Shown piece by piece: positions 6,722-27,890 of a stretch of 32,000 nt of DNA. Where the stretch lies: positions 750,001 through 782,000 of the forward strand of contig CP047921.1 in assembly GCA_010202845.1 (NCBI GenBank), written 5' to 3'. The notes under the pieces are model-generated. The model saw only the letters and a program-made list of their open reading frames with translations, ran no database searches and had not been told where the DNA came from. The stretch is from Candidatus Saccharibacteria bacterium oral taxon 488. GTDB taxonomy: Bacteria > Patescibacteriota > Saccharimonadia > Saccharimonadales > Saccharimonadaceae. A program made the position numbers and the translations under genes. Position 1 is the stretch's first letter. Every line of letters begins with the position of its first letter.

Positions 6722-7246
6722 CTACTCGACTACTTCGACAACCTTACCATGCACGCCGTTGTAGCAAGCAGCAGCACGCGGCTCGGTGATGACCGGTAGT
6801 TGCCCTGGAATAGCGCTCATATTAACGTCGTCAAGCGTACCGGCCTCGACGCAACCAAGCGTGATGTGCGGGCGGAACCCATCAACATCCAGCCCTGGGT
6901 GAATACCATCCAGTGCCGCGAGTAATTGCTGACGCGCCTCAATCATCCAGGCATTTTTCTGCGTGCGTAGCTCAACCCAAATACAGTTACCGGCCTCGTC
7001 TGGCAAGAAACTAACACCATCAAGCACCAACTTACTTAGGATAGGTAGTGCCGCAGCGGCCGACTTGAGGCGTGGCATGTCCTGCTCGGTCACGTTAATC
7101 AGTGTCACGTGTGGGATAAACTCACCAAAGTCAAGATTCATTTTTTCTGACAGCTCTCGAAGATACGCATTCTGCTTATCATCAAAGACGAGGCTGACTG
7201 ATGCCATATGTTTTTCGACTGGATATGCGGTTTCTGCTGCGCGCAT
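6722..7246 (-). CDS. 2H phosphoesterase superfamily protein (LigT/ThpR-like 2'-5' RNA ligase / cyclic phosphodiesterase)
   Basis: Two HxT motifs are present in the expected spacing (PHVTLINV and PHITLGCV). The ATG overlaps the recA stop as TAATG. An alternative start is M14 at 7207. Confidence 0.7.
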   Translation of the reverse strand: MRAAETAYPVEKHMASVSLVFDDKQNAYLRELSEKMNLDFGEFIPHVTLINVTEQDMPRLKSAAAALPILSKLVLDGVSFLPDEAGNCIWVELRTQKNAWMIEARQQLLAALDGIHPGLDVDGFRPHITLGCVEAGTLDDVNMSAIPGQLPVITEPRAAACYNGVHGKVVEVVE

Positions 7247-10777: not shown

Positions 10778-11479
10778 ATGAACGGAAAAACCTGGGCTAT
10801 CTTTGCAATCGTTGTCGCGGCTGTCGTCGGCGGTATGATTTATCTGTCAACACAGAATCGTTTGAACGTTAGTGATATCTCAAATGACGCAGCTATGCGC
10901 ATCATACCGGCCGAAGCGCGCACTGGTAACATCGGTGAGCACACTATCGGCAACACCAATGGCAAAGTTGTGATGATCGAATACGGCGACTACCAGTGCC
11001 CGGGCTGCCGCACCGCTGCACCAGAAGCCAAGCGCGTGGCCGAGAAATACAAGGACCACGTCGCGCTGGTCTTTCGTAATTATCCGATCCCGTCGCTCCA
11101 TCCAAACGCCCGAGCGGCGGCGGCGGTCGCCGAGGCAGCTGGGCTGCAGGGCAAGTTCTGGGAAATGCACGATCTACTCTACACCAACCAAGGCGCATGG
11201 AGTAATGCCCGCGCCAAAGAACGCACCGACGTCTTCAGTGGCTACGCCAAGCAGCTGGGCCTGAAGGTTGATAAATTTAATGCTGACCTAGCCTCCGGTG
11301 CTGTCACGAAGAAAATTGACTTTGATGTGGCGGTCGGGCGACAGTTACAAATTGATGGCACACCAACCTTTTTCATCAACGGCAACAAGCTCAACCTCGG
11401 TGACGCTAGCTCTATCGAAAATGCTGTCAAAGACGCCCTGAAAAAAGCCGGCGTCGCAGTTGATGAAGCAAAAAAATAA
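10778..11479 (+). CDS. DsbA-family thiol:disulfide oxidoreductase, membrane anchored
   Basis: 233 aa with an N-terminal TM and the CxxC active site YGDYQCPGCR in a thioredoxin-like context (GTPTFFINGNK). TGCTATAAT and a GGAGGAAG Shine-Dalgarno lie upstream. Confidence 0.8.
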   Translation: MNGKTWAIFAIVVAAVVGGMIYLSTQNRLNVSDISNDAAMRIIPAEARTGNIGEHTIGNTNGKVVMIEYGDYQCPGCRTAAPEAKRVAEKYKDHVALVFRNYPIPSLHPNARAAAAVAEAAGLQGKFWEMHDLLYTNQGAWSNARAKERTDVFSGYAKQLGLKVDKFNADLASGAVTKKIDFDVAVGRQLQIDGTPTFFINGNKLNLGDASSIENAVKDALKKAGVAVDEAKK

Positions 11480-14687: not shown

Positions 14688-15059
14688 TTACAGCGTCGTA
14701 TCCTTTTTATAATTTTTCTTAGCCTCTAGCAAGCGGCGATTTTGTTCAACTTTATCTTTGATCTCAAAAATTTCAACTGGATACTTTTTATCTAGTTTGG
14801 CAATCTTTGCAGCAACCGCTTCAGGAATATTGATATCAAATCGGTCGGCAAATTGAATCGCATAAATAATGATGTCGGCCAGTTCGCTTGCCATGTCGTC
14901 TTTGGTACCAATATGCGTATCGCTCCACTGAAAATACTCTAATAATTCATTAGCCTCCAATGATAACGAAATTGCCAAACCACGCGAACTCTTCGTCTTA
15001 TTCCACTGGCGAGCACAGACGTGGCTCATTACCAACTTTTGTACTTCTTCAAATGTCAT
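14688..15059 (-). CDS. MazG-like nucleotide pyrophosphohydrolase (dCTPase/DCTPP1-like all-alpha NTP-PPase)
   Basis: SLEANELLEYFQW...ELADIIIYAIQFADRFDINI matches the MazG-type EExxE...D helices. The start was set at the ATG at 15057-15059 (MTFEEVQ...) because AAGGAGA lies 6 nt upstream. The gene is markedly AT-rich. Confidence 0.75.
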   Translation of the reverse strand: MTFEEVQKLVMSHVCARQWNKTKSSRGLAISLSLEANELLEYFQWSDTHIGTKDDMASELADIIIYAIQFADRFDINIPEAVAAKIAKLDKKYPVEIFEIKDKVEQNRRLLEAKKNYKKDTTL

Positions 15060-15134
15060 GCTGTCTCCTTTATCTATTGTCACGTCTTATGGTGCTACTG
15101 ATAGCTCAGTCCCAACCCAGCCTCGCCAAAACTC

Positions 15135-16661
15135 TTACTTGACTAGTCGCAGCCGCTCAATCAACCAATCCCGCGGCAAAATTGACAAGAACCAGCCAGC
15201 GCGTGGGCCGGAATCTTTGCCAATGAGCACGCGGTAGATAGTGGTGAAGAGCTCCCGCGGCGGCAGCAAACCACTTTCCTTGTAGACGTAAATTGCTTGA
15301 TGAAACCAATTGCCGTCAGCTTCGGCTGGCGCCCCGGTGATATCGTCAGCTAATCGCCGCAGGTATTCTTTTTGCTCTGGCGAAAACTCATCGGGACGCA
15401 CCTCGTCCGCCAGGCGAAACTTCAATGATTCAGGCGCCCACTTTTCCAGCCACCGGCTGACGTAGCCTAGTTCCGTAATAATCACCGTCTCTTCCTCATC
15501 GACGATGCGGGCATATTCCGGACTGCGCCGCAAAATTTCTACCGTTTTTGCCGTGTCGCACAGCGCCGCTTGGTACGAAATGACTAGATGCGAGAAGGGA
15601 ATTGAGCTGACCGCTGGATGATTCAGCCCGTCAGTACACAGGAACAATAGCTGTTCGTCGAGCTCATTTTGCGGATGCTGCTTCATCGCCGCGAAGTCGT
15701 CAACCAGCCGCACCAGGCTATCGGTCTCGTCAAAATACAGTCGCTTGGCCGGCGAATATCGAAGGATAAAGTAGCGCACTACCTCAGGCGGCAACATATC
15801 GACAACATCATGCGCGTTCACGCCAGTGCCCTTGCTGGCACTCATCTTTTTGGTATCACCGGTGCGATTGATAAAGTCGTACGGCACCGGTACTGGCGCA
15901 TCAATGTCATAAACCTCGCGGGCAATCCGCTTGCCAGTATCATACGAGCCGCCCTTTGTCGCGTGATCACGACCAAACGGCTCAACATCAACACCGAGCA
16001 GCCACCACCGCCCCGGCCAGTCCAGCCGCCAGTCCAGCTTTACCTGCCCGTCGTCGTACCGGATTGTATGCTCTGAGTCATCATGGCTACGATAGGTAAT
16101 CGTTTTAGCATCGCTATCCATGCTGATAAATCGGCGATTTTTCAGCCGACCATGCTCCATAATCTGAATCGGCGACCACTGATCATTCAGCTGCCGGCCC
16201 GATACTTCCTGGATGGCGGATTTGGCCTTGTCGATACGGCTCAGCGAGCGCTCAATGGCCGGTACAAAAAACCCGCTCCGATATTTATCGCTAGCATAGA
16301 TCACGTCCATGGTGACGCCAATTTTATCAGCACTGTCGAGAAATGGCTTCAGGCAAAAATCCCCCCACGAATCGTACCGATCATCTGGTGATGGCACCGT
16401 GCAAAGCGGCATACCCAAGTACTGCTCATAACTAGCTGGCAAATTAACCGGCACCTTACGAAAGGCGTCCAGGTTATCCGAAACATGAACGTGGCGCGCC
16501 CGAATGCCTGCTTGCTTCAGCGCCCACACTACGGCGTCAGCGATAACGATTTCGCGCAAATGCCCCACATGATACACCCCCGACGGCGATGCGCCCGAGG
16601 AAACGAGCACCTCTTTATCCACATTTCGAAACTGATCTACGATATCATCAAGCCATTTCAT
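15135..16661 (-). CDS. lysK: lysyl-tRNA synthetase, class I
   Basis: 508 aa. It has a class I signature SPSGVYHVGHLREI (HIGH-type) and KMSASKG (KMSKS). The length and layout fit class I LysRS rather than the class II enzyme. Confidence 0.9.
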   Translation of the reverse strand: MKWLDDIVDQFRNVDKEVLVSSGASPSGVYHVGHLREIVIADAVVWALKQAGIRARHVHVSDNLDAFRKVPVNLPASYEQYLGMPLCTVPSPDDRYDSWGDFCLKPFLDSADKIGVTMDVIYASDKYRSGFFVPAIERSLSRIDKAKSAIQEVSGRQLNDQWSPIQIMEHGRLKNRRFISMDSDAKTITYRSHDDSEHTIRYDDGQVKLDWRLDWPGRWWLLGVDVEPFGRDHATKGGSYDTGKRIAREVYDIDAPVPVPYDFINRTGDTKKMSASKGTGVNAHDVVDMLPPEVVRYFILRYSPAKRLYFDETDSLVRLVDDFAAMKQHPQNELDEQLLFLCTDGLNHPAVSSIPFSHLVISYQAALCDTAKTVEILRRSPEYARIVDEEETVIITELGYVSRWLEKWAPESLKFRLADEVRPDEFSPEQKEYLRRLADDITGAPAEADGNWFHQAIYVYKESGLLPPRELFTTIYRVLIGKDSGPRAGWFLSILPRDWLIERLRLVK

Positions 16662-16668
16662 ATGTGCT

Positions 16669-16674
16669 ATTATA
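16669..16674 (-). promoter_or_regulatory. -10 box (TATAAT) 7 nt upstream of the lysK ATG; predicted leaderless
   Basis: On the minus strand the sequence reads TGGTGTATAATAGCACATATG. Confidence 0.45.
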
Positions 16675-16728
16675 CACCATAAAATAATCGTTGCTCTACA
16701 TCAGATAAGATGTCGGGGATGTGGGCAC

Positions 16729-16776
16729 AAAAATAACCGCCGGCCCGAGCCCAGAACAGACTCCGCCCGGCGGTTA
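16729..16776 (-). terminator. rho-independent terminator, orphaned behind the permease tail remnant
   Basis: AACCGCCGG (16736-16744) and CCGGCGGTT (16768-16776) form a GC-rich stem. On the minus strand it is followed by ATTTTTGTG. Confidence 0.6.
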
Positions 16777-16802
16777 CCAGCATCGGATGGAGAGACCCCG
16801 CT

Positions 16803-16874
16803 CTACTCCCACCGAAACAGCTTGATCGCGGCGATGTAGATAACGACAATCCACACAGCAAAGGCACCTATGCG
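16803..16874 (-). pseudogene. remnant of the last 23 codons plus stop of an ABC-2 permease gene
   Basis: My minus-strand translation is RIGAFAVWIVVIYIAAIKLFRWE*. The C-terminus of the intact permease (19947-21065) is QIGAVAAWTLVIYVAAIKLFRWE*, so 16 of 23 residues are identical. A 20-nt identical run, TACTCCCACCGAAACAGCTT, occurs at 16804-16823 and 19948-19967. An in-frame stop lies a few codons upstream, so this is not a gene. Confidence 0.75.
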
Positions 16875-17012
16875 TAGTATTACCCTAAATCCTAAGTCTC
16901 ACTTATACACTTTCGACACTAATATCCACGACAGTCGTTGATTTCAAAACTATTACAATATAACATAGTTATTAATGTTGATTTATTAACTTTCATTGAG
17001 AGGTAGTTATTA

Positions 17013-17912
17013 ATGGAATTTCGTCAGTACAAGACAGATTTAGTAAGAGAGGGCTTAATGCCCGAAGACAGTCAGGTTGTTTCTACAAATAATAAACTGG
17101 TTGCGATATCTCCTGAACAGGGTGTTGTTTATAGAGTCAGTAAAGCTGCTGGTTCTAACCTCAGGGACGACCCCCACGACTTGGGGTATTCTCATAGGGT
17201 ATCTTGGTATGCTGCCCAGGAGGCTCCCGTAGTTTCTCCCCTTGATAGAGAACCACTAACTGCTAAAGGTTATGTCATATCAAGATACCCTTTAATGATA
17301 GGTGACGTGCATTTAAGCGAAAACAATGCTGACGAGATATTCACAATGACTCAGCGCATCAGCAGTTCCTTAAGTACGGTTTCAGACAATATGATGTTGC
17401 GTTCACTTAATATCCCGGAATATGTAGGGAGTCGCATAGAGGACCTCGAGGGCAAAAAGATATCTCATCCGGGTGATCTTGATTATATTAGAAGAGAGCT
17501 AACTGCGCTACAGCACTCTTTCCCCTTCTCTGAATTAACTAAAGATGATACAGGTCTCATACATGGTGATTTTAAAATAGAAAACATTGTCTCAGATGCA
17601 AAAGGCAATTTAAGGGCTATAGATCTTGACGCTGCCGCCGTTGGGCCTAGACTATACGACCTATCATCTTGGAGATTGCGACAAGAATTAGGCGATAAAA
17701 CACCCGTAGAATCTGTTATTGAAATTGCGCGCAAAAAGGAAAAATGGAACGATGATTACTATAAAGCGCTTATAGGCTGGAAAGCCGTTTCTTCAATGAG
17801 CTTTACCTTAAGATATGAAGACGAACAGACTAGCCACCGCAAGATCAATGAGATAGCTAGAGCTGCTATAAAATTAGGCGGTTTACTACATCATACGGAA
17901 CCTGAGGTGTAA
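17013..17912 (+). CDS. phosphotransferase of the APH / choline-kinase (eukaryotic-like kinase) family
   Basis: 299 aa. The catalytic loop is LIHGDFKIENIV (HxDxxxxN) and the metal-binding segment is AIDLDAAAVG (IDxD, the DFG equivalent). A GAGAGG Shine-Dalgarno lies upstream. Confidence 0.75.
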   Translation: MEFRQYKTDLVREGLMPEDSQVVSTNNKLVAISPEQGVVYRVSKAAGSNLRDDPHDLGYSHRVSWYAAQEAPVVSPLDREPLTAKGYVISRYPLMIGDVHLSENNADEIFTMTQRISSSLSTVSDNMMLRSLNIPEYVGSRIEDLEGKKISHPGDLDYIRRELTALQHSFPFSELTKDDTGLIHGDFKIENIVSDAKGNLRAIDLDAAAVGPRLYDLSSWRLRQELGDKTPVESVIEIARKKEKWNDDYYKALIGWKAVSSMSFTLRYEDEQTSHRKINEIARAAIKLGGLLHHTEPEV

Positions 17913-17915
17913 TTT

Positions 17916-18689
17916 ATGAATGAGATTATCTTACAACAAAAAGAAATTATTCGAATATTTACAGAATCCCGTCAAGAGCTAATGCAGTCTTATGGCAATA
18001 TAACGTACGATAGTAAACAGGATAAATCGCCAGTAACCGAACTTGATATTAAAGTCGAGAAAACTGTCAAGGAACAAATTATGGCTCAGTTTCCTGATGT
18101 AGGTATTCGAGGCGAAGAGACGACAGCTGTTAAACCAAAGAATGGTGTAACTTGGTATCTCGACCCTATAGACAGCACACTAAGTTTCATCCATGGCCTT
18201 CCATATTGTTCAAACATGGCTGCTTGTGTTGTCGATGGTGAAGTTGTAGCAAGTGTCATATATCATTTTGCAACGGATGAAATATTCACGGCCATAAGGG
18301 GGCACGGCGCTTATAAAAATAACGTTAAAATTTCTATTCATGACATCCCTCTAGCAAGTTCTTGTGTTTTTGCTGATGCCTTTGCTTATAAAAATATCTA
18401 CGCTTTATATGCCAAAGAGGATGTACGATTCTATGCGCCAGTCGGTGCAACTGGCTACTTCATGGCACTACTAGCCCAAGGTAGTATACAAGGAATTTGC
18501 TACGCAACTGCCAACCTAAAGCCACATGACGTAGCGCCAGGTGTGCTGCTTGTTCAAGAGGCGGGCGGTAAATTCGTATCATTCAACGACAGGCCATTCA
18601 ACTACGAATCGCGACAATTCTTTGCTAGCACACCAACGCTGTGTCAGTTGACGAAGCAAAAATTGCAGAAAATAAAAAAATTAATGTAG
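17916..18689 (+). CDS. inositol monophosphatase (IMPase/FBPase/CysQ) family phosphatase
   Basis: 257 aa with the motifs IRGEE, WYLDPIDSTLSFIHGLP (DPIDxT) and HDVAPGVLLVQEAGG. The gene starts 3 nt after the kinase stop, with a GAGGTG Shine-Dalgarno. Confidence 0.8.
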   Translation: MNEIILQQKEIIRIFTESRQELMQSYGNITYDSKQDKSPVTELDIKVEKTVKEQIMAQFPDVGIRGEETTAVKPKNGVTWYLDPIDSTLSFIHGLPYCSNMAACVVDGEVVASVIYHFATDEIFTAIRGHGAYKNNVKISIHDIPLASSCVFADAFAYKNIYALYAKEDVRFYAPVGATGYFMALLAQGSIQGICYATANLKPHDVAPGVLLVQEAGGKFVSFNDRPFNYESRQFFASTPTLCQLTKQKLQKIKKLM

Positions 18690-18759
18690 TATAGACGCGC
18701 AAAGACTAGTGCCCCACTATCTTTTTAACAGCCGATATTTGCCTTCTTAGCATCCTAGT

Positions 18760-19200
18760 CTACACAATCCACCTAAAATATGGCCTTTTTATTAAAACTA
18801 ACAGACGACGGTCTTTATGATCAAGTCTTAAGAGGTGTGTGTGATAATGATACACGCTTCGTGTCGTAGACAAAGGAGATCTTGTATAGATATTATATCC
18901 CTTGGCTTCATAACCCTCAAGAAGAGCAATATACTCTAGCTTAGCTTCGTCACTAAAGTCCGCGAGCTTTCCAGCATGTCTTTTCGGTATAATCATCAAG
19001 TGATCAATTACCCCCTGTCCATCCCATAAGGAATAGGGAAATTTGTTTCTAATAACCCTAAGATTACGAGTCTCGGTAATATTTTGATAGTGACCCTTAG
19101 TGATTTTACAAAAATCACAAGTTTGATCGTTTTTGTACTTCTTGTCTTTTGAGAATTTTACATAACTCCTCTCTTGACGAGTTGATCGAGGAGCTGTCAT
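18760..19200 (-). CDS. HIT (histidine triad) family nucleotide hydrolase/transferase
   Basis: 146 aa with CDFC, RNKFPY, HLMIIPKRH and the triad HYHTHLL. The NKFPY-type motif resembles the nucleotidyl-transferase (Ap4A phosphorylase/GalT-like) branch. Confidence 0.75.
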   Translation of the reverse strand: MTAPRSTRQERSYVKFSKDKKYKNDQTCDFCKITKGHYQNITETRNLRVIRNKFPYSLWDGQGVIDHLMIIPKRHAGKLADFSDEAKLEYIALLEGYEAKGYNIYTRSPLSTTRSVYHYHTHLLRLDHKDRRLLVLIKRPYFRWIV

Positions 19201-19207
19201 AAATATA

Positions 19208-19843
19208 CTACCCTATTCCCTTTCTAATTTGCGTAGAAGATATGTCGTTATCCATATTCTTTCTACCCGTAACTATCAATCTATTATCATTAAAAGCCGC
19301 TGAAGCCCACGACTCTGATCTTATACAGAATTCCGATATATGTTCCCTTCCTGGACGAATAACACATACCGCACGACCGCCATTAGATAGATGCTCTCTC
19401 ATGCTAGGTAATTGATCCGATCCAACTACGAAGAACAATCTACAGGAGGCAATACCTAAACATTGCTCTATAGTTTTGGGAACATAATCATTTATCTGGT
19501 CTATCCCTGCAGCCGGCCCCGATAGATCATCAACATAAGTTGGAGTACAATCTATTGCTGGTAGAGAAAGGATTCTGTGTACTCTCTCATCGTAAGGCCA
19601 TCCACCCTGCCCACCGCCCAACTTATCTATAACATATTCAGAACTATTAGGCGTAACTACCAGTGCTTCTACGGCCACTCCCTTAGCGATTAGCGCATGT
19701 TTTGCTGAAGTAATTGCATCAATATGACCGTCGTGTATTGGAGCAAAAGAACCAACCATAATAACCGCACCAAAGTTAGAAATATCTGTACTTAAATGCG
19801 AATCAACACCCGAAATTCTCTCTATCGTATCTATATTCGTCAT
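19208..19843 (-). CDS. NadD/NMNAT-like nucleotidyltransferase (HxGH cytidylyl/adenylyltransferase superfamily)
   Basis: The motifs are GSFAPIHDGHID (GxFxPxHxGH), VVGSDQL, VIRPG and a C-terminal ISSTQIRKG (ISSTxxR). The start was set at the ATG at 19841-19843 (MTNIDT...). The TTG at 19900 in the ORF track is less likely. The gene's stop is 7 nt upstream of the HIT gene's start. Confidence 0.75.
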   Translation of the reverse strand: MTNIDTIERISGVDSHLSTDISNFGAVIMVGSFAPIHDGHIDAITSAKHALIAKGVAVEALVVTPNSSEYVIDKLGGGQGGWPYDERVHRILSLPAIDCTPTYVDDLSGPAAGIDQINDYVPKTIEQCLGIASCRLFFVVGSDQLPSMREHLSNGGRAVCVIRPGREHISEFCIRSESWASAAFNDNRLIVTGRKNMDNDISSTQIRKGIG

Positions 19844-19946
19844 AACTTTTGTACAATTAAAGTACTTACTTGAAATAAAATCAACTACTTTTTGCCACAA
19901 CTAACATATATTTATAACAATATCACGAAGCATGATATTCTGCCAA

Positions 19947-21065
19947 TTACTCCCACCGAAACAGCTTAATCGCAGCGACATAGATAACGAGAGTCCAGGC
20001 AGCGACAGCGCCGATTTGCGGCAGGGCCTCGATAAAACTGGCATGCTCAGTCATGATCAAACGGAAACCATCAGTAATCGGCGTCATCGGGATAAACTGG
20101 GCGGCACCGCGTAACCACTCTGGGAACATGTACAGCGGGAAGAATGCACCAGACAAGAACATCATCGGGAAAGAGAGTAAGTTGCTCAGCGGTGCGGACT
20201 GATTTTCATTCTTTGCCCAGCCACCGATCATGAGACCCATACCTACCATCATAAAGGCCGCCAGCACCGCCATAAGGACAAAGAGCCCCCAATCGCCGCG
20301 CATATTAAATTGGAACATCAACATGCCAACGACAACCATCATAGTCAGGCTAAGCAGCGAAATAATCGTGTAGTGAATCGCCATAGAAATAATCAGCTGA
20401 CCCGAGGTAAACGGCGCCGCGCGCAGTCGGCGGTAGGAGCCACGCTGTTTTTCGGCCGGCATCTGGTTGGCCAGACCAAATATGCCCATACTCATCAAAC
20501 TAAATGCCAACAGTCCAGTGAATGTATAGTCAAATGGCTTCAACCGCTCGTCGCCGACAGCTTTACCAGCAGCCTTGAGCGGCGCCTCTGGCTGACCCAA
20601 ATGCTTATTTATTTCATTGGCAATCTGATTCATCACCGCAGTTAAGGCGCTACCAGTTTGCTCGGAGCCTTTTGCGTACAAGACATTGATAGTGCCAGTC
20701 GGGCGAGCATCCCTGCCCTCACCCTTCACTTTGCCAAAATCGCTTGGTAGTTCAATGATGCCGTTCAGTTCCGAACGCTTCATCTTCTCGCGAGCCTCGT
20801 CCATATCCTTGACATCTTTGATTTTAAGAATCGAGTCTTTGGCATTGTCTTTGGCGCCTTTGACGAAATTTTTAGCAAATTCTGTCTGCGAATTATTGAT
20901 AATCGCGATGTCAAAGCTGGTCGATTGATTATTAAAAATCGAACCGAATACCAACAAAAAGATGAGCGGAAACAGGAAGGTAAAGAATAGCGACATTTTA
21001 TCGCGGATGAAACGTTTTTGTTGGGCGCGTACTTGCCCGAATACACCAGTCCAATATTTTTTCAT
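19947..21065 (-). CDS. ABC-2 type transporter permease
   Basis: 372 aa with an N-terminal TM, a large extracytoplasmic loop and five C-terminal TM helices, typical of ABC-2/YadH-like exporters. It starts 1 nt after the ATPase gene. Confidence 0.85.
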   Translation of the reverse strand: MKKYWTGVFGQVRAQQKRFIRDKMSLFFTFLFPLIFLLVFGSIFNNQSTSFDIAIINNSQTEFAKNFVKGAKDNAKDSILKIKDVKDMDEAREKMKRSELNGIIELPSDFGKVKGEGRDARPTGTINVLYAKGSEQTGSALTAVMNQIANEINKHLGQPEAPLKAAGKAVGDERLKPFDYTFTGLLAFSLMSMGIFGLANQMPAEKQRGSYRRLRAAPFTSGQLIISMAIHYTIISLLSLTMMVVVGMLMFQFNMRGDWGLFVLMAVLAAFMMVGMGLMIGGWAKNENQSAPLSNLLSFPMMFLSGAFFPLYMFPEWLRGAAQFIPMTPITDGFRLIMTEHASFIEALPQIGAVAAWTLVIYVAAIKLFRWE

Positions 21066-21066
21066 A

Positions 21067-21831
21067 CTAATCCCGAATCGCCTTTCCTGTTAAATCAATA
21101 AATACGTCCTCCAAATTGGCCTGCTCGACAACTTGCTTTTTCTTAAAACCGCGCGCCAGTAGTTGCTGGATCAGATTATGTGGCGTATCAATGGTGATGA
21201 TTTTACCGTTGTCCATAATCGCCAAGCGATCGCACAGCAGCTCGGCCTCGTCCATATAATGCGTGGTCAGCACGATAGTAATACCTTCATCGCGAATCTC
21301 TTTGATCAAATCCCATAAATTGCGGCGCGCCTGCGGATCCAGCCCAGTGGTCGGCTCGTCAAGGAATAGCACCGTTGGGTTATTAACCAGCGTCGACGCG
21401 ATGGCGAAGCGCTGCTTTTGCCCGCCCGAGAGCTGCTCGACGTAGCTTTTGGCTTTGTCGGTCAATTGCACCTTGGCCAGCAGCGCGTCAGCGTCGACCG
21501 TTTGGCCGTACAGGCTGGCAAACATTTTCAATTGTTCACGCAAGGTTAGTTTGTCGTAAAACGTTGTCGATTGCAGCTGGATACCAATGATGTTTTTAAT
21601 GTGCTTCGGCTGCTTGGCAACATCAATTCCGTCGATAGTCGCCGTGCCGCCATCAATCGGCCGGAGCGCCTCCAGCATCTCGAGTGTTGTCGTCTTACCA
21701 GCGCCGTTGGGGCCGAGAATACCGAAGATCTCGCCTTTCTTGACCTCAAACGACACGCTATCGACGACATTCTTGCCATCGTACGTCTTGACGAGTTGGT
21801 CAACTGTTATGATTGGTTTGGGTTGAACCAT
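21067..21831 (-). CDS. ABC transporter ATP-binding protein (ABC-2/DrrA-type)
   Basis: Walker A is GPNGAGKTT, the signature motif is LSGGQKQR and Walker B is LFLDEPTTGLD, with an H-loop at TTHYM. A GGAG Shine-Dalgarno lies upstream. Confidence 0.92.
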   Translation of the reverse strand: MVQPKPIITVDQLVKTYDGKNVVDSVSFEVKKGEIFGILGPNGAGKTTTLEMLEALRPIDGGTATIDGIDVAKQPKHIKNIIGIQLQSTTFYDKLTLREQLKMFASLYGQTVDADALLAKVQLTDKAKSYVEQLSGGQKQRFAIASTLVNNPTVLFLDEPTTGLDPQARRNLWDLIKEIRDEGITIVLTTHYMDEAELLCDRLAIMDNGKIITIDTPHNLIQQLLARGFKKKQVVEQANLEDVFIDLTGKAIRD

Positions 21832-21975
21832 GTATAGCTCCTTTCCGCGCTCTGTTTCAGCACTGCATACCTTAGCGATAGAATGATTCCCTGTAGTCTA
21901 TCTTTAGTTAGTCATTATAACACTCTGCGTGAGGTATGCAACTCGAGAGGGCTAGCCAAGCCGACACGATACCGT

Positions 21976-21981
21976 TATACT
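21976..21981 (+). promoter_or_regulatory. -10 box (TATACT) 6 nt upstream of the CHAP-protein ATG; predicted leaderless
   Basis: The sequence reads GTTATACTAACCATATG, with the ATG at 21988. Confidence 0.4.
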
Positions 21982-21987
21982 AACCAT

Positions 21988-22644
21988 ATGCCGAAGAAGC
22001 CCCACCTCTCCATCACGCGGCCGCGCAGTCGTCTCAAGAAACGGTATGTATTTGCACTGGTGCTGATACCGTTAATCGCTGTTTGTATCAGTCTCGGCGC
22101 GCTGTATTGGCCAAAAATTACTCATAGACTTCACTTGCTGAGGGTGGCCGGTAGCATTGATTCATCACGCGGCGAGGCGACATTCCCGCAGATTGATACT
22201 ACAAATTTACATCCGACCCGGCAAAAAATTATCAGCCTCACCAAAACCGAATTCGAAGCACAATCCGCCGGCACCAAGTTCAGCCAGGGCGTCCGTGAAG
22301 CGTGGTGCGCCGATTTTGTGAGCTGGATCATGCAGCAGGCGGGTGCGCCACTAAAAAATCCGCACACTGGCGGCTGGCGTATTCCGGGAACGTTTACCCT
22401 GCGTGAATATTACGAGGCGAATGGTCGCTTCAAGCCTGCTAATTCTGGCTATCAACCGCGTCCTGGCGACGTGGCAATTTACCGCAATTCGCCGGTGTTT
22501 GGTGATCACACTAACATTGTCCTAAAAAATGACGACGGCGTTTTGACCACCGTCGGCGGCAATGAAATGAACCGTATCCGCGTGTTTACCAACCGCGATA
22601 AGCGCTACGATGGACTGCTGGGATATGGCGTGCTAGCAGAGTAA
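21988..22644 (+). CDS. membrane-anchored CHAP-domain peptidoglycan amidase/endopeptidase
   Basis: From the internal ATG the protein reads MPKKPHLSITRPRSRLKKRYVFALVLIPLIAVCISLGALYW (signal anchor). It then has AWCADFVSWIMQQAG (catalytic Cys), GDVAIY, GDHTNIV (His) and GGN, as in CHAP domains. Confidence 0.75.
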   Translation: MPKKPHLSITRPRSRLKKRYVFALVLIPLIAVCISLGALYWPKITHRLHLLRVAGSIDSSRGEATFPQIDTTNLHPTRQKIISLTKTEFEAQSAGTKFSQGVREAWCADFVSWIMQQAGAPLKNPHTGGWRIPGTFTLREYYEANGRFKPANSGYQPRPGDVAIYRNSPVFGDHTNIVLKNDDGVLTTVGGNEMNRIRVFTNRDKRYDGLLGYGVLAE

Positions 22645-24360: not shown

Positions 24361-25314
24361 CTAACTCTTGATGCGCGTACCAGCGGCACCGTTGATAGCG
24401 TCAGCGGTTTTTTCGAGCGAGGTGATGATCGCCGTACGCCCCGAAGCGCCGGCCACAAAACTTAACGCCGCCTGGGTTTTCGGTAGCATTGAGCCAGCCG
24501 CAAACTGCCCAGCATCAATATGCTGCTGCAGCTCCTCGACCGATACCTCACCAAGTGACTGCTCTGTCGGCTGACCAAAATTGACCTTAGCTGCATCAAC
24601 CGACGTCAGGATCAGCAATGTATCCGCCCCGAGTGTGTCCGCCAGCTTGGCCGCACCAAAATCTTTGTCGATCACCGCCGCTACGCCGCTCAATTGACCC
24701 GACGCATCACGCAGTACCGGAATACCGCCGCCACCAGTCGAGACCACCAACACGCCGGCATCGACCAGCGCCTTGATGACGGGAGCCTCGACAATTTCCT
24801 GAGGCTTTGGTGATGGCACAACGCGCCGCCAACCACGGCCCGAGTCCTCGCGCACGGTATAGCCACGCTCGGCCTGTACCTTCTTGGCCTCTTCTTCTGA
24901 ATAAAATGGCCCAATTGGCTTGGTCGGATTTTGAAACGCTGGATCAGCCTGATCAACCACCGTCTGGGTAACGATGCTCGCTGCATACTTATCATGCACA
25001 CCACGAGTTGCCAGCGCATCGTGGATCGCTTGCTGCAACCAAAAACCAATTAGCCCCTGGCTCATCGCACCAGAATCTTCCAGCGGCAAGCTCGGCACCG
25101 CCTCGGTGTTAATCGCCTCCTCGTGTAGGACAATGTTGCCGACCTGCGGGCCATTACCGTGGACAATGGCTACGCGGTGGCCGGCTTGAATCAGCGGCAG
25201 AAGCTGGGCGATGGTTTCGTCGGCCACTCGCTGCTGCGCCTGGGACGAGGCCTCGCCCTGACGTTGCAGGGCGTTACCTCCAAGCGCGACGACAATAGTT
25301 CGCTGCTGATTCAT
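24361..25314 (-). CDS. arcC: carbamate kinase
   Basis: 317 aa with IVVALGGNAL, HGNGPQVG, STGGGGIPV and VIDKD, canonical carbamate kinase motifs. The start overlaps the upstream stop as TAATG. Confidence 0.92.
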   Translation of the reverse strand: MNQQRTIVVALGGNALQRQGEASSQAQQRVADETIAQLLPLIQAGHRVAIVHGNGPQVGNIVLHEEAINTEAVPSLPLEDSGAMSQGLIGFWLQQAIHDALATRGVHDKYAASIVTQTVVDQADPAFQNPTKPIGPFYSEEEAKKVQAERGYTVREDSGRGWRRVVPSPKPQEIVEAPVIKALVDAGVLVVSTGGGGIPVLRDASGQLSGVAAVIDKDFGAAKLADTLGADTLLILTSVDAAKVNFGQPTEQSLGEVSVEELQQHIDAGQFAAGSMLPKTQAALSFVAGASGRTAIITSLEKTADAINGAAGTRIKS

Positions 25315-26900
25315 TAAGCAATGGCTCCGTATACCGTGATAGCTACGAGGCTAATTATCGCAAAGACCACCATGATTGGCATCGAGCGCTTCAACCATGC
25401 ACGGTACGACACGCCGGCTAGGGCCAGACCGCCCATCAATGAAGCAATGGTTGGCGCCATCATATTCAACAGACCCGATGCCGCGGCAAATGCGACAACG
25501 ATAATCTCCTTGCTAGAGCCGACTAGATCAGCCACCGGCGCAATGACTGGCATAGTTGCCGCCGCTAGACCTGATGATGACGGAATGATAAAGCTCATCG
25601 GCAAGTAGAAGATATAGGCGAGAATACCAACAAAGCTACCCGCACCCTTCAGGGCAGATTCGCCCCAGCTGATAATGGTGTCTTGGATGGCACCATTCTG
25701 CATCACCACGCCGACACCGGCGGCCACCGCAATGATCAGCGCCACACTCAGTAGATCGGCTGTACCCTTCAGGAAGGTGTCAACAACGAAGATTTCCTCT
25801 TTCTTGAATTGGCGATAATAAATCGCTGCGATAACTAAGGTTGACAACAGGAACAGGGTCGAGATCTCGTTGAAGTACCACTCACCAAATGGCAAGACAT
25901 GATCGAGACCCAAGATAGCACCAACGACCGGTAGCTCTGTAAACCATTTATGGATATCGGCGAACAGCGTGATCCCCCAGTTGCCCCACGGGATAAGCGA
26001 GATGATCATCAATAGGAAAGTGATGCCAAAGACCGCCATCACTGCTTTACGCGGACCGGTAAATTCTGGCACGTTGCTCATATCAAGTGCGGTGGTGGCT
26101 GGCTTATACCGAACATCATCTTTATACTTACCAGCCTTTACCTTTGACGCGTATCGCATGGTGAACACGATAGCCGCGACCAAACAGAGCAGCAAAATGA
26201 TTGATTGGAGACCCAATATATTACCGAGCGGCACGTCAGCCGACTTGGCAGCGATACCAGTTGAAAATGGGTTTAACGTTGAACCAAGCACACCAGTACC
26301 AGCACCCAGCACGATCACCATCACCGCAGTCATGGCGTTATAGCCAGCCGCCATCATGATCGGCACCACCAGCGCGTAAAACGCCACTGCCTCTTCCTGC
26401 ATGCCGTAGGTGGTACCACCGATAGCGAAGAACGTCATGAGAATTGGGATGAGCCATTTCTCCTTGCCCTTCATCTTACGCAGCATGGCACCCAGTGTCG
26501 CATCCAGTGCGCCAGTCTTCATCGTCACCCCGAGGAAGCCGCCGAGGATTAACACGAAGACGATGACGTCGAGCTTCTCACTCATGCCCTTGATCGGCGC
26601 AAGTGCTGCATCCCACAAACCTTGGCGGGAATCAGTGGTCGTCTCGGTGCCGTCATCGGCTTTTTTAGTAGTGATTTTATCAGTCTGTTTGTACGTACCA
26701 GCGATGCGCACTGTCTTTTCCGCATCATTTGGATCTGGTTTTGTGTTGTACACACCAGACGGGATAATCCACGTTAGGACCGCCATCAAGGCAATCACCA
26801 CAAACAGCACAGTAAAGGCTGAGGGCGAGCGCAGCTTTTTCTTAATTTTTTTCATTTTTTCTACCATGTCCGGAGCCTCCTTTACTCCTGTATTAGACAT
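25314..26900 (-). CDS. YfcC / DcuC-type (C4-dicarboxylate anaerobic carrier family) membrane transporter; putative arginine/ornithine exchanger by operon context
   Basis: 528 aa polytopic membrane protein whose overall sequence resembles the YfcC family. It is embedded between arcB and arcC with 0 and -1 nt spacers. Confidence 0.8.
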   Translation of the reverse strand: MSNTGVKEAPDMVEKMKKIKKKLRSPSAFTVLFVVIALMAVLTWIIPSGVYNTKPDPNDAEKTVRIAGTYKQTDKITTKKADDGTETTTDSRQGLWDAALAPIKGMSEKLDVIVFVLILGGFLGVTMKTGALDATLGAMLRKMKGKEKWLIPILMTFFAIGGTTYGMQEEAVAFYALVVPIMMAAGYNAMTAVMVIVLGAGTGVLGSTLNPFSTGIAAKSADVPLGNILGLQSIILLLCLVAAIVFTMRYASKVKAGKYKDDVRYKPATTALDMSNVPEFTGPRKAVMAVFGITFLLMIISLIPWGNWGITLFADIHKWFTELPVVGAILGLDHVLPFGEWYFNEISTLFLLSTLVIAAIYYRQFKKEEIFVVDTFLKGTADLLSVALIIAVAAGVGVVMQNGAIQDTIISWGESALKGAGSFVGILAYIFYLPMSFIIPSSSGLAAATMPVIAPVADLVGSSKEIIVVAFAAASGLLNMMAPTIASLMGGLALAGVSYRAWLKRSMPIMVVFAIISLVAITVYGAIA

Positions 26901-27890
26901 CTACAGCGTCAAAGCGATAACCGCTTTGATGGTATGCATACGATTTTCCGCCTGGTCAAAGACGATCGAATTTGGTGAGCGGAAGACGTCATCCGTCACC
27001 TCCATCGCCTCTAGCCCGAAATCGTCCCTGATGTGCTGGCCGGTCGTGGTCAACGCATCATGAAAGGCCGGCAAGCAGTGCATGAACTTGACCTCAGGAT
27101 TGCCGGTGAGGTTCAGCATGTCGCGATTAACCTGGAAGTGACGCAGCTGGTTGATGCGCTCAGCAAACTTATCCTCTTCGCCCATCGACACCCAGACATC
27201 GGTGTAAACGACATCAGCACCGCGCAGGGCTTCCTCAAAATTATCAGTGATAGTAATCCGCCCGTGGTTCTGGTGCGCCAGCTCATGCGCGTGATGGACG
27301 AGGCCCTCCTCAGGGAACAATTCACGCGGTGCCAAAATCCGAAAGTCCAGCCCCATAATCGCCGAGCCGAGCAGCAGGCTGTTAGCCATGTTATTGCGGC
27401 CATCGCCGACAAACACCAGCTTGACGCCGTGCAGCCGACCGAGGTGCTCCTCGATAGTCATAAAGTCGGCTAGAATCTGCGTTGGATGGAACTTATCAGT
27501 CAATCCATTCCATACTGGCACGCCGGCGTGCTTCGCTAGATCTTCTACCGTTTTGTGTGCAAAACCGCGAAACTCAATACCGTCAAACATCCGGCCCAGC
27601 ACCTTGGCGGTGTCCTCGACCGTCTCTTTCTTGCCAAGCTGAATATCGTCTTTACCGAGATATTCCGGCGCGATACCGAGGTCGTTGGCCGCCACCGTAA
27701 AGGCGCAGCGCGTCCGCGTCGAGGTTTTTTCAAACAACAACGCAATGTTCTTGCCCTCATGAATCCGATGCGGCGTACCGGCGTACTTCATCCGCTTATA
27801 TTCATTCGCCGTCGTTAGTAGCAACCGAATATCACCCGCAGTAAAATCACCCAGTGTTAGGAATGATCGCCCTTTCAAACTTTGTGCCAT
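26901..27890 (-). CDS. arcB: ornithine carbamoyltransferase (catabolic by context)
   Basis: 329 aa with STRTRCAF (carbamoyl-phosphate site), HPTQ, DVWVSMG and HCLPAFH motifs. Confidence 0.93.

Follow-up and report, generated by a model that had tools for sequence, protein, structure and literature searches.

The window analysed here, a 32,000-nucleotide stretch of DNA from an oral Saccharibacteria (TM7) host of the HOT-488/Nanosynbacter group, contains a four-gene, low-GC block inserted at the 3' end of an ABC-2 permease gene. The block (16852/16875-19946) is probably a non-autonomous accessory islet that occupies a hotspot, has spread by homologous recombination in its flanks, and is accompanied by a duplicated permease tail that is the scar of its founding integration. 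It is well resolved, yet it represents a fairly ordinary kind of genomic islet. An earlier reading of the sequence alone had proposed an insertion with a duplicated gene tail and a stranded terminator, and all three are real, given the empty sites in relatives, the absence of the genes from 79/80 species representatives, and a composition unlike that of the host.

Architecture of the insertion and the duplicated permease tail

The left conserved flank is a two-gene ABC-2 operon on the minus strand. Its first gene encodes an ABC transporter ATPase (21067-21831; Pfam ABC_tran, E = 6e-32), whose position upstream of the permease is conserved in relatives with contigs extending to it, and its second encodes an intact 372-aa permease (19947-21065; Pfam ABC2_membrane_3, E = 3e-45) ending in ...QIGAVAAWTLVIYVAAIKLFRWE*. 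The right conserved flank is lysK, a class I lysyl-tRNA synthetase gene (15135-16661, minus strand; Pfam tRNA-synt_1f, E = 1e-93), and lysK and the ABC ATPase gene are the homology anchors of the region. The variable region is bounded on the right by the conserved lysK promoter region (16662-16726, minus strand), which has an extended -10 element, TGTATAAT, at 16669-16676; GTGTATAATAGCACAT-ATG is common to hotspot states with lysK downstream, with minor variants in more distant relatives. Between the tail copies lies approximately 3.07 kb of DNA with 39.7% GC (0.376-0.430 in 500-nt windows), as in the hand count of about 40%, whereas the 55-68% given for the flanks was too high: these lie at about 0.45-0.58, with a mean of 0.52 over the remainder of the window. 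Third-position GC is 0.30-0.37 in the island genes versus 0.55-0.67 in neighbouring genes. The sequence-only reading had named host-like composition and a lack of empty sites as evidence against insertion; GC and GC3 are instead foreign, and empty sites exist.

The islet comprises two convergent two-gene operons, one holding an NMN/NaMN adenylyltransferase-like gene (NT) and a histidine triad (HIT) gene, the other an APH-fold kinase gene and an inositol-monophosphatase-family (IMPase) phosphatase gene. NT and HIT alone are co-oriented with the ABC operon, so read-through from that operon could reach these two genes only. The convergent stop codons of IMPase and HIT are separated by 18690-18759, and a fold of 18685-18765 yields a small hairpin, AAAGACUAGUG-CCC-CACUAUCUUU, followed by UUU (-14.3 kcal/mol, z = -1.4), which weakly suggests that hairpin and T-run may form a bidirectional terminator. 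At the left island end, the NT upstream region (19844-19946, minus strand) is 92% identical in L099, a diverged carrier of the islet, versus 68% for the adjoining permease tail, and a promoter scan placed a promoter-like element, TTGGCA-N16/18-GATATT/TATTGT, immediately 3' of the permease stop. An AT-rich hairpin noted earlier at 19919-19939 does exist; however, its fold (-9.5 kcal/mol, z = -0.76) is no better than those of shuffled sequences. At the right end, the AT-rich region upstream of the kinase gene (16875-17012) has 100% identity to its counterpart in L121 and, with indels, 78% to that in L099; it presumably holds the kinase promoter, and the promoter scan called no consensus promoter within it.

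The last 72 nt of the permease gene (tail A, 19947-20018, minus strand) recur at the far end of the islet as a stranded, in-frame remnant (tail B, 16803-16874, minus strand), which translates to RIGAFAVWIVVIYIAAIKLFRWE* and is preceded by stop codons. The two are identical at 57/75 nt without gaps, above chance level given that the same 75-mer scores a mean of 18.8 (sd 3.9) across the window and 39/75 at its next-best non-self match, and at 17/23 amino acids rather than the 16/23 first counted. A repeat search returned a 68-nt direct repeat with 81% identity and 3144 nt spacing; the repeat measures 68-75 nt in all. The perfect 20-nt match reported between the copies, TACTCCCACCGAAACAGCTT, is present at 16804-16823 and 19948-19967, and occurred in none of 100 shuffles. 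Directly 3' of tail B lies the intrinsic terminator of the ABC operon (16727-16776, minus strand), a GC-rich hairpin with arms at 16734-16749 and 16761-16776; the 91-nt terminator region folds at -39.6 kcal/mol and leads into the T-run UUAUUUUUG (minus strand). That this terminator was stranded is borne out by the empty-site genomes L046 and L051, in which the homologous hairpin and T-run come directly 3' of the permease stop.

The permease protein is identical in island-free genomes L001 and L003, the tail A allele is common to L008 and L048, and the protein encoded by tail A is the same as in island-free L001, L008 and L048. Judged by these matches, tail A is the clade-typical allele and tail B the diverged copy. 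The earlier proposal was that a diverged copy had restored the gene; the diverged copy is the stranded one and not the intact tail, which makes it less clear than implied which copy restored the permease. Tail B itself looks composite. Its final 47 nt agree at 46/47 positions with a permease allele found in nature (L023/L033 tails) and continue into the resident terminator, and homology to the L099-type island stops at 16852, inside tail B. The first approximately 23 nt accompany the island in L099-L103, L122 and L123, and probably also in L121, where tail B has an indel and has lost its stop codon, and where identity falls within tail B from 98.5-100% to 87-92%. On this alignment evidence, approximately 16852-16874 appears to travel with the island and approximately 16803-16851 looks like a resident-type permease allele. 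Alternatively, these 23 nt may be an ancient leftover, or their partial homology (12/16 nt) may be due to chance.

Occupancy of the site and spread of the islet

The predicted empty site, with the permease followed by the same terminator, is found in the relatives L046 and L051, where the permease stop leads to the same GC hairpin and T-run and then to lysK, with terminator and lysK promoter both within 144-148 nt of the permease stop. In L007 and L052, only 29 nt separate the permease stop from lysK. Across 80 species-level genomes, at least 10 other cargo states are found at the island position, and together with the empty sites these alternative occupants indicate a hypervariable hotspot. 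The four island genes are absent from 79/80 species-representative genomes with this permease; the island is carried by L053, a GTDB species-representative genome, and in near-identical form by L121. In L039 and L057, a c18+lysK block has left a second, independent scar: a 27-nt piece of the permease tail lies after the block, ahead of the intergenic region that belongs to the other synteny type. The repeat differs in length between these two scars (27-30 nt for c18+lysK, 49-72 nt for the island), and the shorter c18+lysK remnant suggests, from comparison of the junctions, recombination scars and not a fixed attachment site. The remaining hotspot occupants have no tail repeat. Unrelated IS copies are present in the neighbourhoods of L021, L022, L026 and L030.

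As first reported, the island and the rest of the 32-kb window contain no integrase, transposase or terminal inverted repeats. No island copies were found on viral contigs, and recA and recX are present in the window. Six aligned genomes share the island, tail B and terminator at 99.9-100% identity (99.93-100%), whereas their ABC genes are 94-99.9% and lysK 91-97% identical. The shared haplotype block has at least six left ends and at least six right ends among 12 island-bearing contigs. A near-identical island in flanks diverged by up to 9%, with varying block ends, indicates repeated import by homologous recombination, and the island appears, from these alignments, to move between strains by this ordinary route. 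The mobilisation that the sequence-only reading had left unexplained thus has a likely answer in recombination through the flanks. In L100 and L102, the island persists despite deletion of the ATPase gene of the ABC operon and of the greater part of the permease gene.

Since the comparison sequences are mostly metagenome-assembled, and one contig (L114), in which a radical-SAM gene is fused to the permease, looks chimeric, it has to be weighed whether low-GC DNA was wrongly joined to Saccharibacteria sequence during assembly or binning. The exact kinase protein of the island is, however, encoded on 18 independently assembled contigs, in addition to L053 and L121; of the 18, the 15 viewed closely were produced by different studies and assemblers and, L114 apart, have the same junctions, and diverged island versions lie at the same position in other lineages. 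An artefact is effectively refuted and has almost no chance of being correct.

An ancestral, vertically inherited island, with empty sites as secondary losses and low GC imposed by gene constraints, finds some support in these diverged versions. L105-L107 carry the island at the same position with 74-78% identity to the window, similar to the 70-76% of their ABC and permease genes, and in three host backgrounds, whose own GC is 0.43-0.52, that of the island stays at about 0.40. A perfect empty site would also be regenerated if the two tail copies recombined. Vertical descent cannot, however, produce an island at least 99.9% identical between flanks of 91-97% identity, nor the contrast between the window and L099, where island genes are 89-98% identical and the ABC genes, permease and tail A 68-80%; these contrasts already indicate an island phylogeny incongruent with the core genes. 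Presence in 1/80 species representatives with the permease, a tail B that is a different allele from tail A and not a decayed copy, and the occurrence of the module with host-like GC at other chromosomal sites in more distant lineages also argue against it. We consider this explanation decidedly improbable for the island as a whole; it survives for the deeper history of the locus only.

Under the favoured explanation of spread by flank recombination, the islet would move between strains and species inside larger tracts that recombine in the ABC operon and lysK flanks. Natural transformation would be the most likely route of DNA entry because Saccharibacteria are experimentally competent, taking up DNA via comEC and integrating it homologously with arms as short as 221 bp (PMC10633639), as found in strains other than this one. 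The duplicated tail would be the scar of the founding integration, in which incoming DNA, comprising a complete permease 3' end and then the cassette, was anchored by homology in the ABC/permease genes and joined at its other end by a short-homology or illegitimate crossover within the last 50-70 nt of the resident permease. Such a join would correspond to homology-facilitated illegitimate recombination, a mechanism defined in PMC3240628, or equivalently to a Campbell-type single crossover of a circular copy, and would have pushed the resident tail and terminator downstream while leaving the permease intact. The donor was likely a lower-GC Saccharibacteria lineage of the L099 type, which has an 89-98% identical island at the same position within flanks of 43-45% GC; none of the sequences compared shows a donor arranged exactly as expected before the insertion.

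Three features fit this explanation less well. The exchange boundaries between the window and L099 are sharp, at the stop codon on the left and approximately 23 nt into tail B on the right, and the flanks there are 74-80% identical or non-homologous, which is awkward for RecA-dependent recombination and fits a site-specific mechanism. The perfect 20-nt core at the 3' end of both repeats resembles an att core. Finally, compared with the module in 6/6 more distant contexts examined, the gene order of the window cassette is a circular permutation, which hints at a circular intermediate, something that transformation would not obviously produce. A non-autonomous, cis-mobilisable-like element would account for these features: a recombinase of the tyrosine or serine type, encoded at another genomic location or on a phage, would recognise the permease 3' end, with the two tail copies as att sites, and act in trans to excise and integrate a circle by crossover at the 20-nt core AAGCTGTTTCGGTGGGAGTA. 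The insertion at a gene 3' end that leaves the permease intact, the identity jump exactly at the stop codon despite permease genes only 74% identical in the window and L099, and the duplication of the same terminal 27 nt, core included, by the c18+lysK block are in keeping with such an element. It is nevertheless unlikely, though not negligible. The island, the 32-kb window and the examined neighbourhoods hold no recombinase gene, the unrelated IS being the sole exception; L099-type islands without the core at their right end persist in several samples; repeat length is unequal between events; other hotspot occupants lack the repeat; and within the clade the haplotype ends at many flank positions, as homologous recombination predicts.

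Predicted functions of the cargo genes

NT (19208-19843, minus strand; Pfam CTP_transf_like) encodes 211 aa from its ATG, or 230 aa from an alternative TTG start at 19900, and its translation contains the motifs GSFAPIHDGH and ISSTQIR. Its AlphaFold model (pLDDT 89) matches NMNAT/NadD structures in all of the top 15 PDB hits and has a TM score of 0.69 to human NMNAT1. The adjacent HIT-family gene (18760-19200, minus strand; 146 aa) was assigned from its HxHxH triad (YHYHTHLL), invariant across nine homologues, and from a profile search of the PDB that matched Hint-type AMP-phosphoramidases (E = 6e-7), its Pfam HIT score being borderline (21.2 bits versus a 21.5 cut-off). The 257-aa IMPase-family phosphatase (17916-18689, plus strand) scores 143.6 bits against a cut-off of 27 for Pfam Inositol_P and has Thermotoga IMPase 2p3n as its best PDB match (E = 2e-23), and falls below the equivalog cut-offs of HisN, CysQ, SuhB and NADP phosphatase. 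The 299-aa kinase (17013-17912, plus strand; Pfam APH, 33.5 bits) is a predicted small-molecule kinase of the APH/choline-kinase fold, with invariant catalytic motifs HGDFKIEN and IDLD; its model (pLDDT 91) best matches LicA choline kinase, AmiN, YihE and APH(9). The kinase family is very small: a search of 1.84 billion representatives gave 26 clusters at E <= 1e-30. The four-gene module is a rare one, shared with Saccharibacteria-like contigs.

Folds and motifs suggest that the cargo most likely acts in salvage or interconversion of a pyridine-type (NAD-like) nucleotide, although this assignment is a guess. As in NAD salvage modules built on NadD, NadR or eukaryotic NMNAT, NT has the (H/T)xGH and ISSTxxR motifs and a fold that confidently matches NMNAT/NadD structures alone. 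Unlike them, it has 16-21% sequence identity to solved NMNATs and lies far under the NCBIfam nadD cut-off (29 bits versus 112), and to our knowledge HIT, APH-fold kinase and IMPase-family phosphatase are partners in no described NAD salvage route.

Comparison with known insertion systems

Integrase-driven islands and prophages in the 3' ends of tRNA or protein genes, together with CIMEs and trans-mobilised IMEs, likewise target a 3' end and leave the gene intact, carry direct repeats at both ends with a perfect core inside imperfect repeats, and displace the original 3' end and terminator downstream. The islet differs in having no integrase in cis or nearby and no evidence of excision, in repeat lengths that are unequal for two events at one site, and in a population pattern of flank recombination.

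[quoted passage not shown] Its products share with the islet one long homologous anchor, a short-homology join at the other end, and foreign DNA inserted without a recombinase, with duplication or deletion of recipient sequence at the junction; a Campbell-type single crossover is expected to give the same product. Here the process would be read from natural genomes, and, whether taken as 12/16 nt or as the whole 49-72 nt, the junction patch exceeds the 3-10 nt typical of laboratory microhomologies. A further likeness is that the organism group is naturally competent (PMC10633639).

The islet also resembles flexible islets in recombination hotspots: its position between conserved genes is fixed, the site has many alternative cargos as well as empty states, composition is atypical, mobility genes are absent, and a near-identical island is found in diverged backgrounds with variable flank breakpoints. 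Familiar examples of such islets are the pneumococcal capsule locus (dexB-aliA) and the hypervariable islands of Prochlorococcus and SAR11. It is set apart from these by its host, an ultrasmall epibiotic CPR bacterium, and by two further features, a displaced operon terminator and an imperfect direct repeat derived from the 3' end of the flanking gene, neither of which simple allelic replacement would yield.

Direct repeat, composition and gene content of the island

The permease ORF (19947-21065, minus strand, 372 aa) has the C-terminal end QIGAVAAWTLVIYVAAIKLFRWE followed by its stop codon, and the minus strand at 16803-16874 translates to RIGAFAVWIVVIYIAAIKLFRWE and a stop codon, with several further stop codons immediately before it. 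The sequence-only reading had described these stretches, here termed tail A (the intact permease 3' end, 19947-20018) and tail B (a stranded remnant), as a duplicated gene tail sharing 16 of 23 residues; the similarity stands, but a recount gives 17 of 23. At the nucleotide level, the tails are identical at 57 of 75 positions in an ungapped alignment, against a background for the 75-mer tail of 18.8 on average (standard deviation 3.9, maximum 39) over the whole window and both strands. A repeat search, in which terminal inverted and internal repeats were also sought, returned the tails as a 68-nt direct repeat of 81% identity with a spacing of 3144 nt, the only meaningful repeat found. The perfect 20-nt match reported between them, TACTCCCACCGAAACAGCTT, is present in both tails exactly where it had been placed, and occurs in 0 of 100 shuffles. 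Direct repeats are thus present at the 3' end of the target gene, with the intact gene on the left and the remnant on the right, and, at 68-75 nt and with imperfect identity, they are not a short target-site duplication.

The drop in GC content described between the tail copies was confirmed, with 39.7% overall and 0.376-0.430 in 500-nt windows over 17001-20000; the flanks, for which 55-68% had been claimed, measure only about 0.45-0.58, the remainder of the window averaging 0.52. GC3 is 0.30-0.37 in the four genes of this block (the island, approximately 16875-19946) versus 0.55-0.67 in the permease, ATPase, lysK, MFS, CHAP and CorA genes. The hairpin and T-run noticed downstream of the remnant fold stably from arms at 16734-16749 and 16761-16776 with a U-run on the minus strand, and so display the GC-rich stem-loop and U-run of an intrinsic terminator. 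L046 and L051 (L-numbers denote permease- or island-bearing loci from related genomes or metagenome contigs) have a homologue immediately behind the permease stop. The promoter and terminator scanner accepts loops of 3-8 nt and therefore did not detect the 16729-16776 hairpin, which has a long loop with an inner stem; the element was assigned by folding and conservation instead. This stranded terminator now follows a non-coding remnant, and the kinase operon of the island points away from it. The overall proposal, that foreign DNA entered near the permease end and left a duplicated tail and a displaced terminator, was essentially right, and the insertion is real.

The island consists of two convergent operons: the nucleotidyltransferase (NT, 19208-19843) and HIT protein (18760-19200) genes lie on the same strand as the permease, and the APH-fold kinase (17013-17912, plus strand) and IMPase-family phosphatase (17916-18689) genes lie on the opposite strand. 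The left flank carries the ABC ATPase and permease genes, and the right flank carries lysK (class I lysyl-tRNA synthetase, 15135-16661, minus strand), a MazG-like gene and an MFS transporter. The MazG-like gene (14688-15083, minus strand) has a GC content of 0.39 and a GC3 of 0.41, versus about 0.53-0.55 in its neighbours; it is absent from L041, L051 and L052, is a 46-aa internally deleted remnant in L099 and encodes 72 aa in L109, and is a second small variable islet. Farther out, recA (7246-8316) and recX (6017-6676) lie on the minus strand about 9-10 kb downstream of lysK, and upstream of the ABC operon there is an arginine deiminase operon (ADI, OTC, DcuC-type transporter and carbamate kinase; 24361-29126, minus strand). 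A CHAP-domain gene (21883-22644, plus strand) is divergent from the ABC operon; its product is called at 253 aa in some relatives but at 218 aa in L002 and L108, a difference that suggests start-codon or N-terminus variation.

In agreement with the sequence-only reading, no integrase or transposase appeared among the Pfam results for the window, and no inverted repeat joins the island ends. Integrase, rve and resolvase domains were likewise absent, both from the Pfam matches obtained for ORFs in the island and elsewhere in the 32-kb window and from the precomputed hits on neighbouring contigs. A transposon or IS was rejected, there being no transposase and no inverted repeat between the ends, as was an integron cassette, there being no IntI-like gene, no attC-like imperfect palindrome at the island ends and no Rfam match. 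The island was not found on viral contigs in kinase and NT profile searches, which gave only remote NMNAT matches on very large (0.1-0.45 Mb) contigs, and a PHROGs search gave no meaningful match; the island is not a recognisable phage module.

A hypervariable site with empty states

A search with the permease retrieved 80 species-representative genomes, all of them oral or mammal-associated Candidatus Saccharibacteria (TM7). The closest permeases are from two uncultured Saccharibacteria MAGs (99%), one of which bears the island, followed by those of "oral taxon 488 strain 106.1.1" (CP128407.1, 98%) and a Nanosynbacter MAG (87%). The permease-lysK gap was measured in every fetched locus and falls into discrete values. 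It is 33 nt in L007 and L052, where 29 nt separate the permease stop from the lysK start and only the lysK promoter is present, and 144-148 nt in L046 and L051, where the homologue of the 16729-16776 hairpin and T-run precedes the lysK promoter. A gap of 611-639 nt (L001, L003, L008, L009, L039, L048 and L057) contains c18, an orphan gene in antisense orientation that takes the place of the terminator, that of 2184 nt in L041 holds three other genes, and that of 3288-3289 nt (the window, L002, L004-L006 and L053) holds the four-gene island, the remnant and the terminator. L046 and L051 therefore have the arrangement predicted for an empty site, the permease followed directly by the terminator, although as sequences empty sites are indistinguishable from never-occupied ones. 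L001 and L003 encode a permease protein identical to that of the window, yet are island-free.

The c18 gene, a 169-aa ORF (L001 11160-11669, minus strand), is also present in L008, L009, L039, L048, L057, L041 and the complete genome CP128407.1, and has no match in Pfam, NCBIfam, PADLOC or PHROGs. Most other lineages carry a different conserved gene set after the permease (c0, c5, c1 and c2), and these too have diverse small inserts directly after the permease stop. The occupants include a toxin-antitoxin pair of a SocA/Panacea antitoxin and a partner ORF, about 200-1140 nt past the stop (L015, L028, L031 and L034), an IS (rve-domain) transposase with an RpiB sugar-phosphate isomerase (L021, L026, L030 and L022, the transposase being broken in L022), a SAP_new25-domain protein (L040 and L041), and several orphan ORFs. 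Across the 80 genomes, at least ten states follow the permease stop, among them the terminator only, nothing, c18, c68, the Panacea pair, the IS with RpiB, and the island. The many alternative inserts mark this position as hypervariable. The four-gene island is a rare state, present in one of the 80 species representatives, with the exact kinase protein on 18 metagenomic contigs. Comparison of these loci shows the site to be a hotspot with empty states and the block in the window to be foreign.

Tail A is the clade-typical allele: island-free L001, L008 and L048 have the same residues, and the DNA differs from theirs mainly in the last two codons. Tail B did not arise as a copy of tail A that later decayed, as three observations indicate. 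At 46 of 47 positions, its last 47 nt agree with the functional permease tails of L023 and L033, and this stretch runs on into the terminator seen at empty sites. Its first ~23 nt (beginning CGCATAGGTGCCTTTGCTG) are common to the right end of the islands of the L099 type, a group carried by another lineage, with homology ending at window position 16852. In L121, a metagenome locus, the island is 98.5-100% identical to that of the window and identity then falls to 87-92% from inside tail B onward. The remnant is therefore a mosaic, in which island-linked and resident permease sequence were joined within the last 50-70 nt. The L121 remnant has also gained an indel and lost its stop codon, as expected of a non-functional fragment.

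A second scar is present in L039 (about 11254-11300) and L057 (about 3102-3140), where a 27-nt permease-tail remnant, reading GCGATTAAGCTTTTCCGGTGGAAATAG in L039, lies 12 nt past the lysK stop, after the c18 and lysK block, and continues into the permease-to-MazG intergenic region of the other synteny type. In these two loci lysK, an essential gene, seems to be part of the block inserted at the permease 3' end. Two blocks at one gene end have thus left direct repeats of different length (27-30 nt versus 49-72 nt). The recipient tail was duplicated in two independent events; no tail copy was found in the other hotspot occupants. For the island, ATAGGTGCCTTTGCTG versus ATCGGCGCTGTTGCTG is the candidate patch at which an illegitimate join could have formed, as in homology-facilitated illegitimate recombination, the pre-insertion donor sequence not having been found. 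Two independent tail-duplication scars at one gene end go beyond the routine.

Spread, origin and entry of the island

To obtain segment identities, six island-bearing genomes were aligned to the window. The island (3072 nt) is 99.93-99.97% identical among the six, or 99.93-100% taken with tail B and the terminator, and tail B with the terminator and lysK promoter is 99-100% identical, compared with 94.0-99.9% for the ABC genes and 91.4-97.0% for lysK. The switch from near-identity to normal divergence varies by genome, with at least six left and at least six right ends among 12 island-bearing contigs. In reverse-complement coordinates (window coordinate equals 32001 minus the value), the shared blocks end on the left at about 10367, 10856, 11043, 11334, 11535, 11901 and 12003, and on the right at about 15267, 15411, 15660, 15846, 15915, 16008 and 16314. 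Variable block ends, together with an island far more alike than its flanks, indicate repeated import inside homologous-recombination tracts of variable length. The pattern of alignment is not that of an element excising itself at fixed ends, and the comparison shows that the island spreads via homologous recombination in its flanks. An assembly artefact is effectively excluded, and a largely vertical history with losses, in which the island would have been inherited and the empty sites would be secondary losses, is considered improbable. Among Saccharibacteria, natural transformation that depends on comEC has been demonstrated experimentally only for S. epibionticum and N. lyticus, with integration of linear DNA carrying homology arms down to 221 bp (PMC10633639).

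Locus L053 was considered as evidence that the island carries along the final 51 nt of tail A, and was set aside: about two mismatches are expected and none is seen, which is too weak, and L099 speaks against the same reading, its tail A being only 68% identical. In L114 (3611-4867), the permease call is a fusion of 418 aa that includes Radical_SAM/Fer4_12 domains, with a CarboxypepD_reg gene after it, and this locus is probably a chimeric metagenome assembly.

A search for donor lineages with NT as the query retrieved diverged islands in other lineages, which have the same convergent order and start right after the permease stop. In one group (L099-L104, L122 and L123), NT is 86% identical to that of the window at the amino acid level. 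Between the window and L099, nucleotide identity is 79.6% in the ATPase gene, 73.9% in the permease gene and 68% in tail A, and then 92% in the region upstream of NT, 89% in NT, 97.7% in HIT, 96.9% in IMPase and 96.4% in the kinase gene. The jump in identity at the stop codon indicates that the island was exchanged between the two lineages long after their divergence. L099 has flanks of 43-45% GC and an island of 39% GC, making a lower-GC Saccharibacteria lineage of the L099 kind a plausible donor on compositional grounds. In a second group (L105-L107), NT is 73% identical at the amino acid level, and island (74-78%) and flanks (70-76%) are about equally diverged from the window, so that the cassette must have been linked to the permease 3' end for a long time. 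One metagenome DNA scan for a donor with the pre-insertion arrangement, or for a full-length tail B beside another downstream gene, found neither; its only matches were L121, a window-type locus whose right flank differs, and two loci of the L099 type.

On distant contigs (L087 and L088-L098; for example, L087 6682-9738), the four genes are adjacent in divergent order, with HIT and NT on one strand and the kinase and IMPase genes on the other, at unrelated chromosomal sites and with host-like GC. One of these contigs, L090, has ADI and OTC genes 73% identical to those of the window. The permease-linked order is a circular permutation of the divergent order. This was rejected as proof of a circular intermediate and is kept as a hint only, since the closest divergent-order relative is about 55% identical, leaving ample time for rearrangement.

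The locus is probably best explained by homologous recombination in the flanks combined with a founding join at short homology. In the founding event, an incoming permease 3' end with the cassette would have been joined to the resident chromosome in two steps, a homologous crossover within the ABC and permease genes and a second join at a short similarity inside the resident permease tail, by which the tail and terminator of the resident would have been moved away from the gene. The same outcome would be expected if a circular molecule made up of tail and cassette integrated by a Campbell-type single crossover, a route that would fit the circular permutation as well. From then on, tail B could act as a short right-hand homology arm, which would explain the breaks inside tail B in L121. 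The main rival is a trans-acting site-specific recombinase using the perfect 20-nt core, which is favoured by the sharpness of the island boundaries between lineages with flanks of only 74-80% identity; given that no recombinase gene was found in the regions examined, that the core is absent from the right end of L099-type islands and that the flank breakpoints vary, this rival is judged unlikely. A broader and doubtful possibility, to which we give little credence, is that the permease 3' end is a dedicated landing pad for integrase-free cassettes in competent Saccharibacteria, with the cargo perhaps an undescribed pathway. Such cassettes would bring their own homology arm in the form of a permease tail copy and could therefore enter at this position in every lineage, regardless of the downstream genes, via RecA alone or via an undiscovered trans-acting recombinase recognising the 20-nt core.

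Expression, cargo and comparison with known systems

Past the permease stop there is only a weak hairpin with no U-run, and a promoter-like TTGGCA-N16/18 element, kept in L099, begins right after the stop. In L100 (3159-3377) and L102 (1239-1457), the ATPase and most of the permease are deleted, while the island persists, immediately preceded by a permease fragment of 72 C-terminal residues. Together these features make an own promoter for the NT-HIT operon likely, and the 72-aa fragment is possibly kept by the island for that promoter. Read-through from the ABC operon, as predicted from the hairpin, is possible into NT and HIT only. The deletion in L100 and L102 also indicates that the ABC transporter is dispensable.

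PDB sequence searches with NT and the kinase returned no match, and structure prediction was therefore used. The NT translation contains GSFAPIHDGH and DISSTQIR (HxGH and ISSTxxR motifs), in which the H, G, H, S and R residues do not vary across 31 homologues. The NT model is confident (pLDDT of 89), and its top 15 fold matches are all NMNAT/NadD, the only structures that it matches significantly; the score against TIGR00482 (the nadD equivalog) is 29 bits with a cut-off of 112, and the protein is predicted to be NMNAT-like, not a confirmed NadD. The HIT protein has invariant H118, H120 and H122, scores 21.2 in Pfam versus a gathering cut-off of 21.5, and is closest to Hint-type hydrolases, whose structures it matches in a profile search (E = 6e-7). 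The IMPase-family protein scores 143.6 bits against PF00459 (cut-off 27) and contains WYLDPIDST, which includes the metal-binding DPID(G/S)T motif, with all equivalog models below their cut-offs. The kinase scores 33.5 bits against PF01636 (cut-off 23.2) and has an intact catalytic loop, with HGDFKIEN and IDLD invariant; its predicted fold matches LicA, AmiN, YihE and APH(9), a generic APH/choline-kinase fold. Its family is very small: from 1.84 billion representative proteins, a profile search recovered 26 clusters at E <= 1e-30, rising to 44 at E <= 1e-10. Substrate assignment for the kinase and the IMPase-family protein was rejected, as the fold and HMM matches are generic. The sole PADLOC match is a sub-threshold one of the HIT protein to ThsC (E = 0.0035, 15 bits), so the island is not a known defence system, and Rfam at permissive thresholds gave no riboswitch or other RNA element in 16400-20300.

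Our best guess, made with low confidence, is that the cargo may salvage or interconvert a nucleotide of the pyridine type. Under such a scheme, a precursor taken up by scavenging would be turned into a dinucleotide by the kinase together with the adenylyltransferase, whereas trimming or recycling would fall to the phosphatase and the HIT enzyme. Alternatively, the enzymes may modify a small-molecule antibiotic. On the doubtful broader view given above, the rare module, shared with Saccharibacteria-like contigs, could be a pathway not described before, in which precursors obtained from the host are used to produce or recycle a dinucleotide resembling NAD. The genomes of Saccharibacteria and other CPR bacteria are tiny, and these organisms rely on bacterial hosts; a compact, very rare and strain-variable four-enzyme module could affect the scavenging of nucleotides or cofactors from the host.

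Natural competence in Saccharibacteria was demonstrated only recently, and in the laboratory. The locus provides population-genomic evidence that gene blocks cross strains and species of Saccharibacteria in the human mouth, by recombination via conserved flanks and without mobile-element machinery, with duplicated gene tails, as recombination scars, marking the first entry of new blocks. The clear population signature of recombination-driven spread and the rare uncharacterised cargo module also go beyond the routine. The permease-lysK junction is a naturally permissive insertion site, and could serve genetic engineering of these organisms.

With integrase-mediated islands, ICEs and IMEs the locus shares attL/attR-like repeats at a gene 3' end, but no integrase gene was found in or next to the island. 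Flexible islets in recombination hotspots have alternative cargos and empty states between conserved core genes, and islands more alike than their flanks with variable breakpoints, and the locus in the window shares both features. The island is not a new kind of element; it amounts to an accessory islet that lacks an integrase and occupies a recombination hotspot in a genome-reduced bacterium from a naturally competent group.
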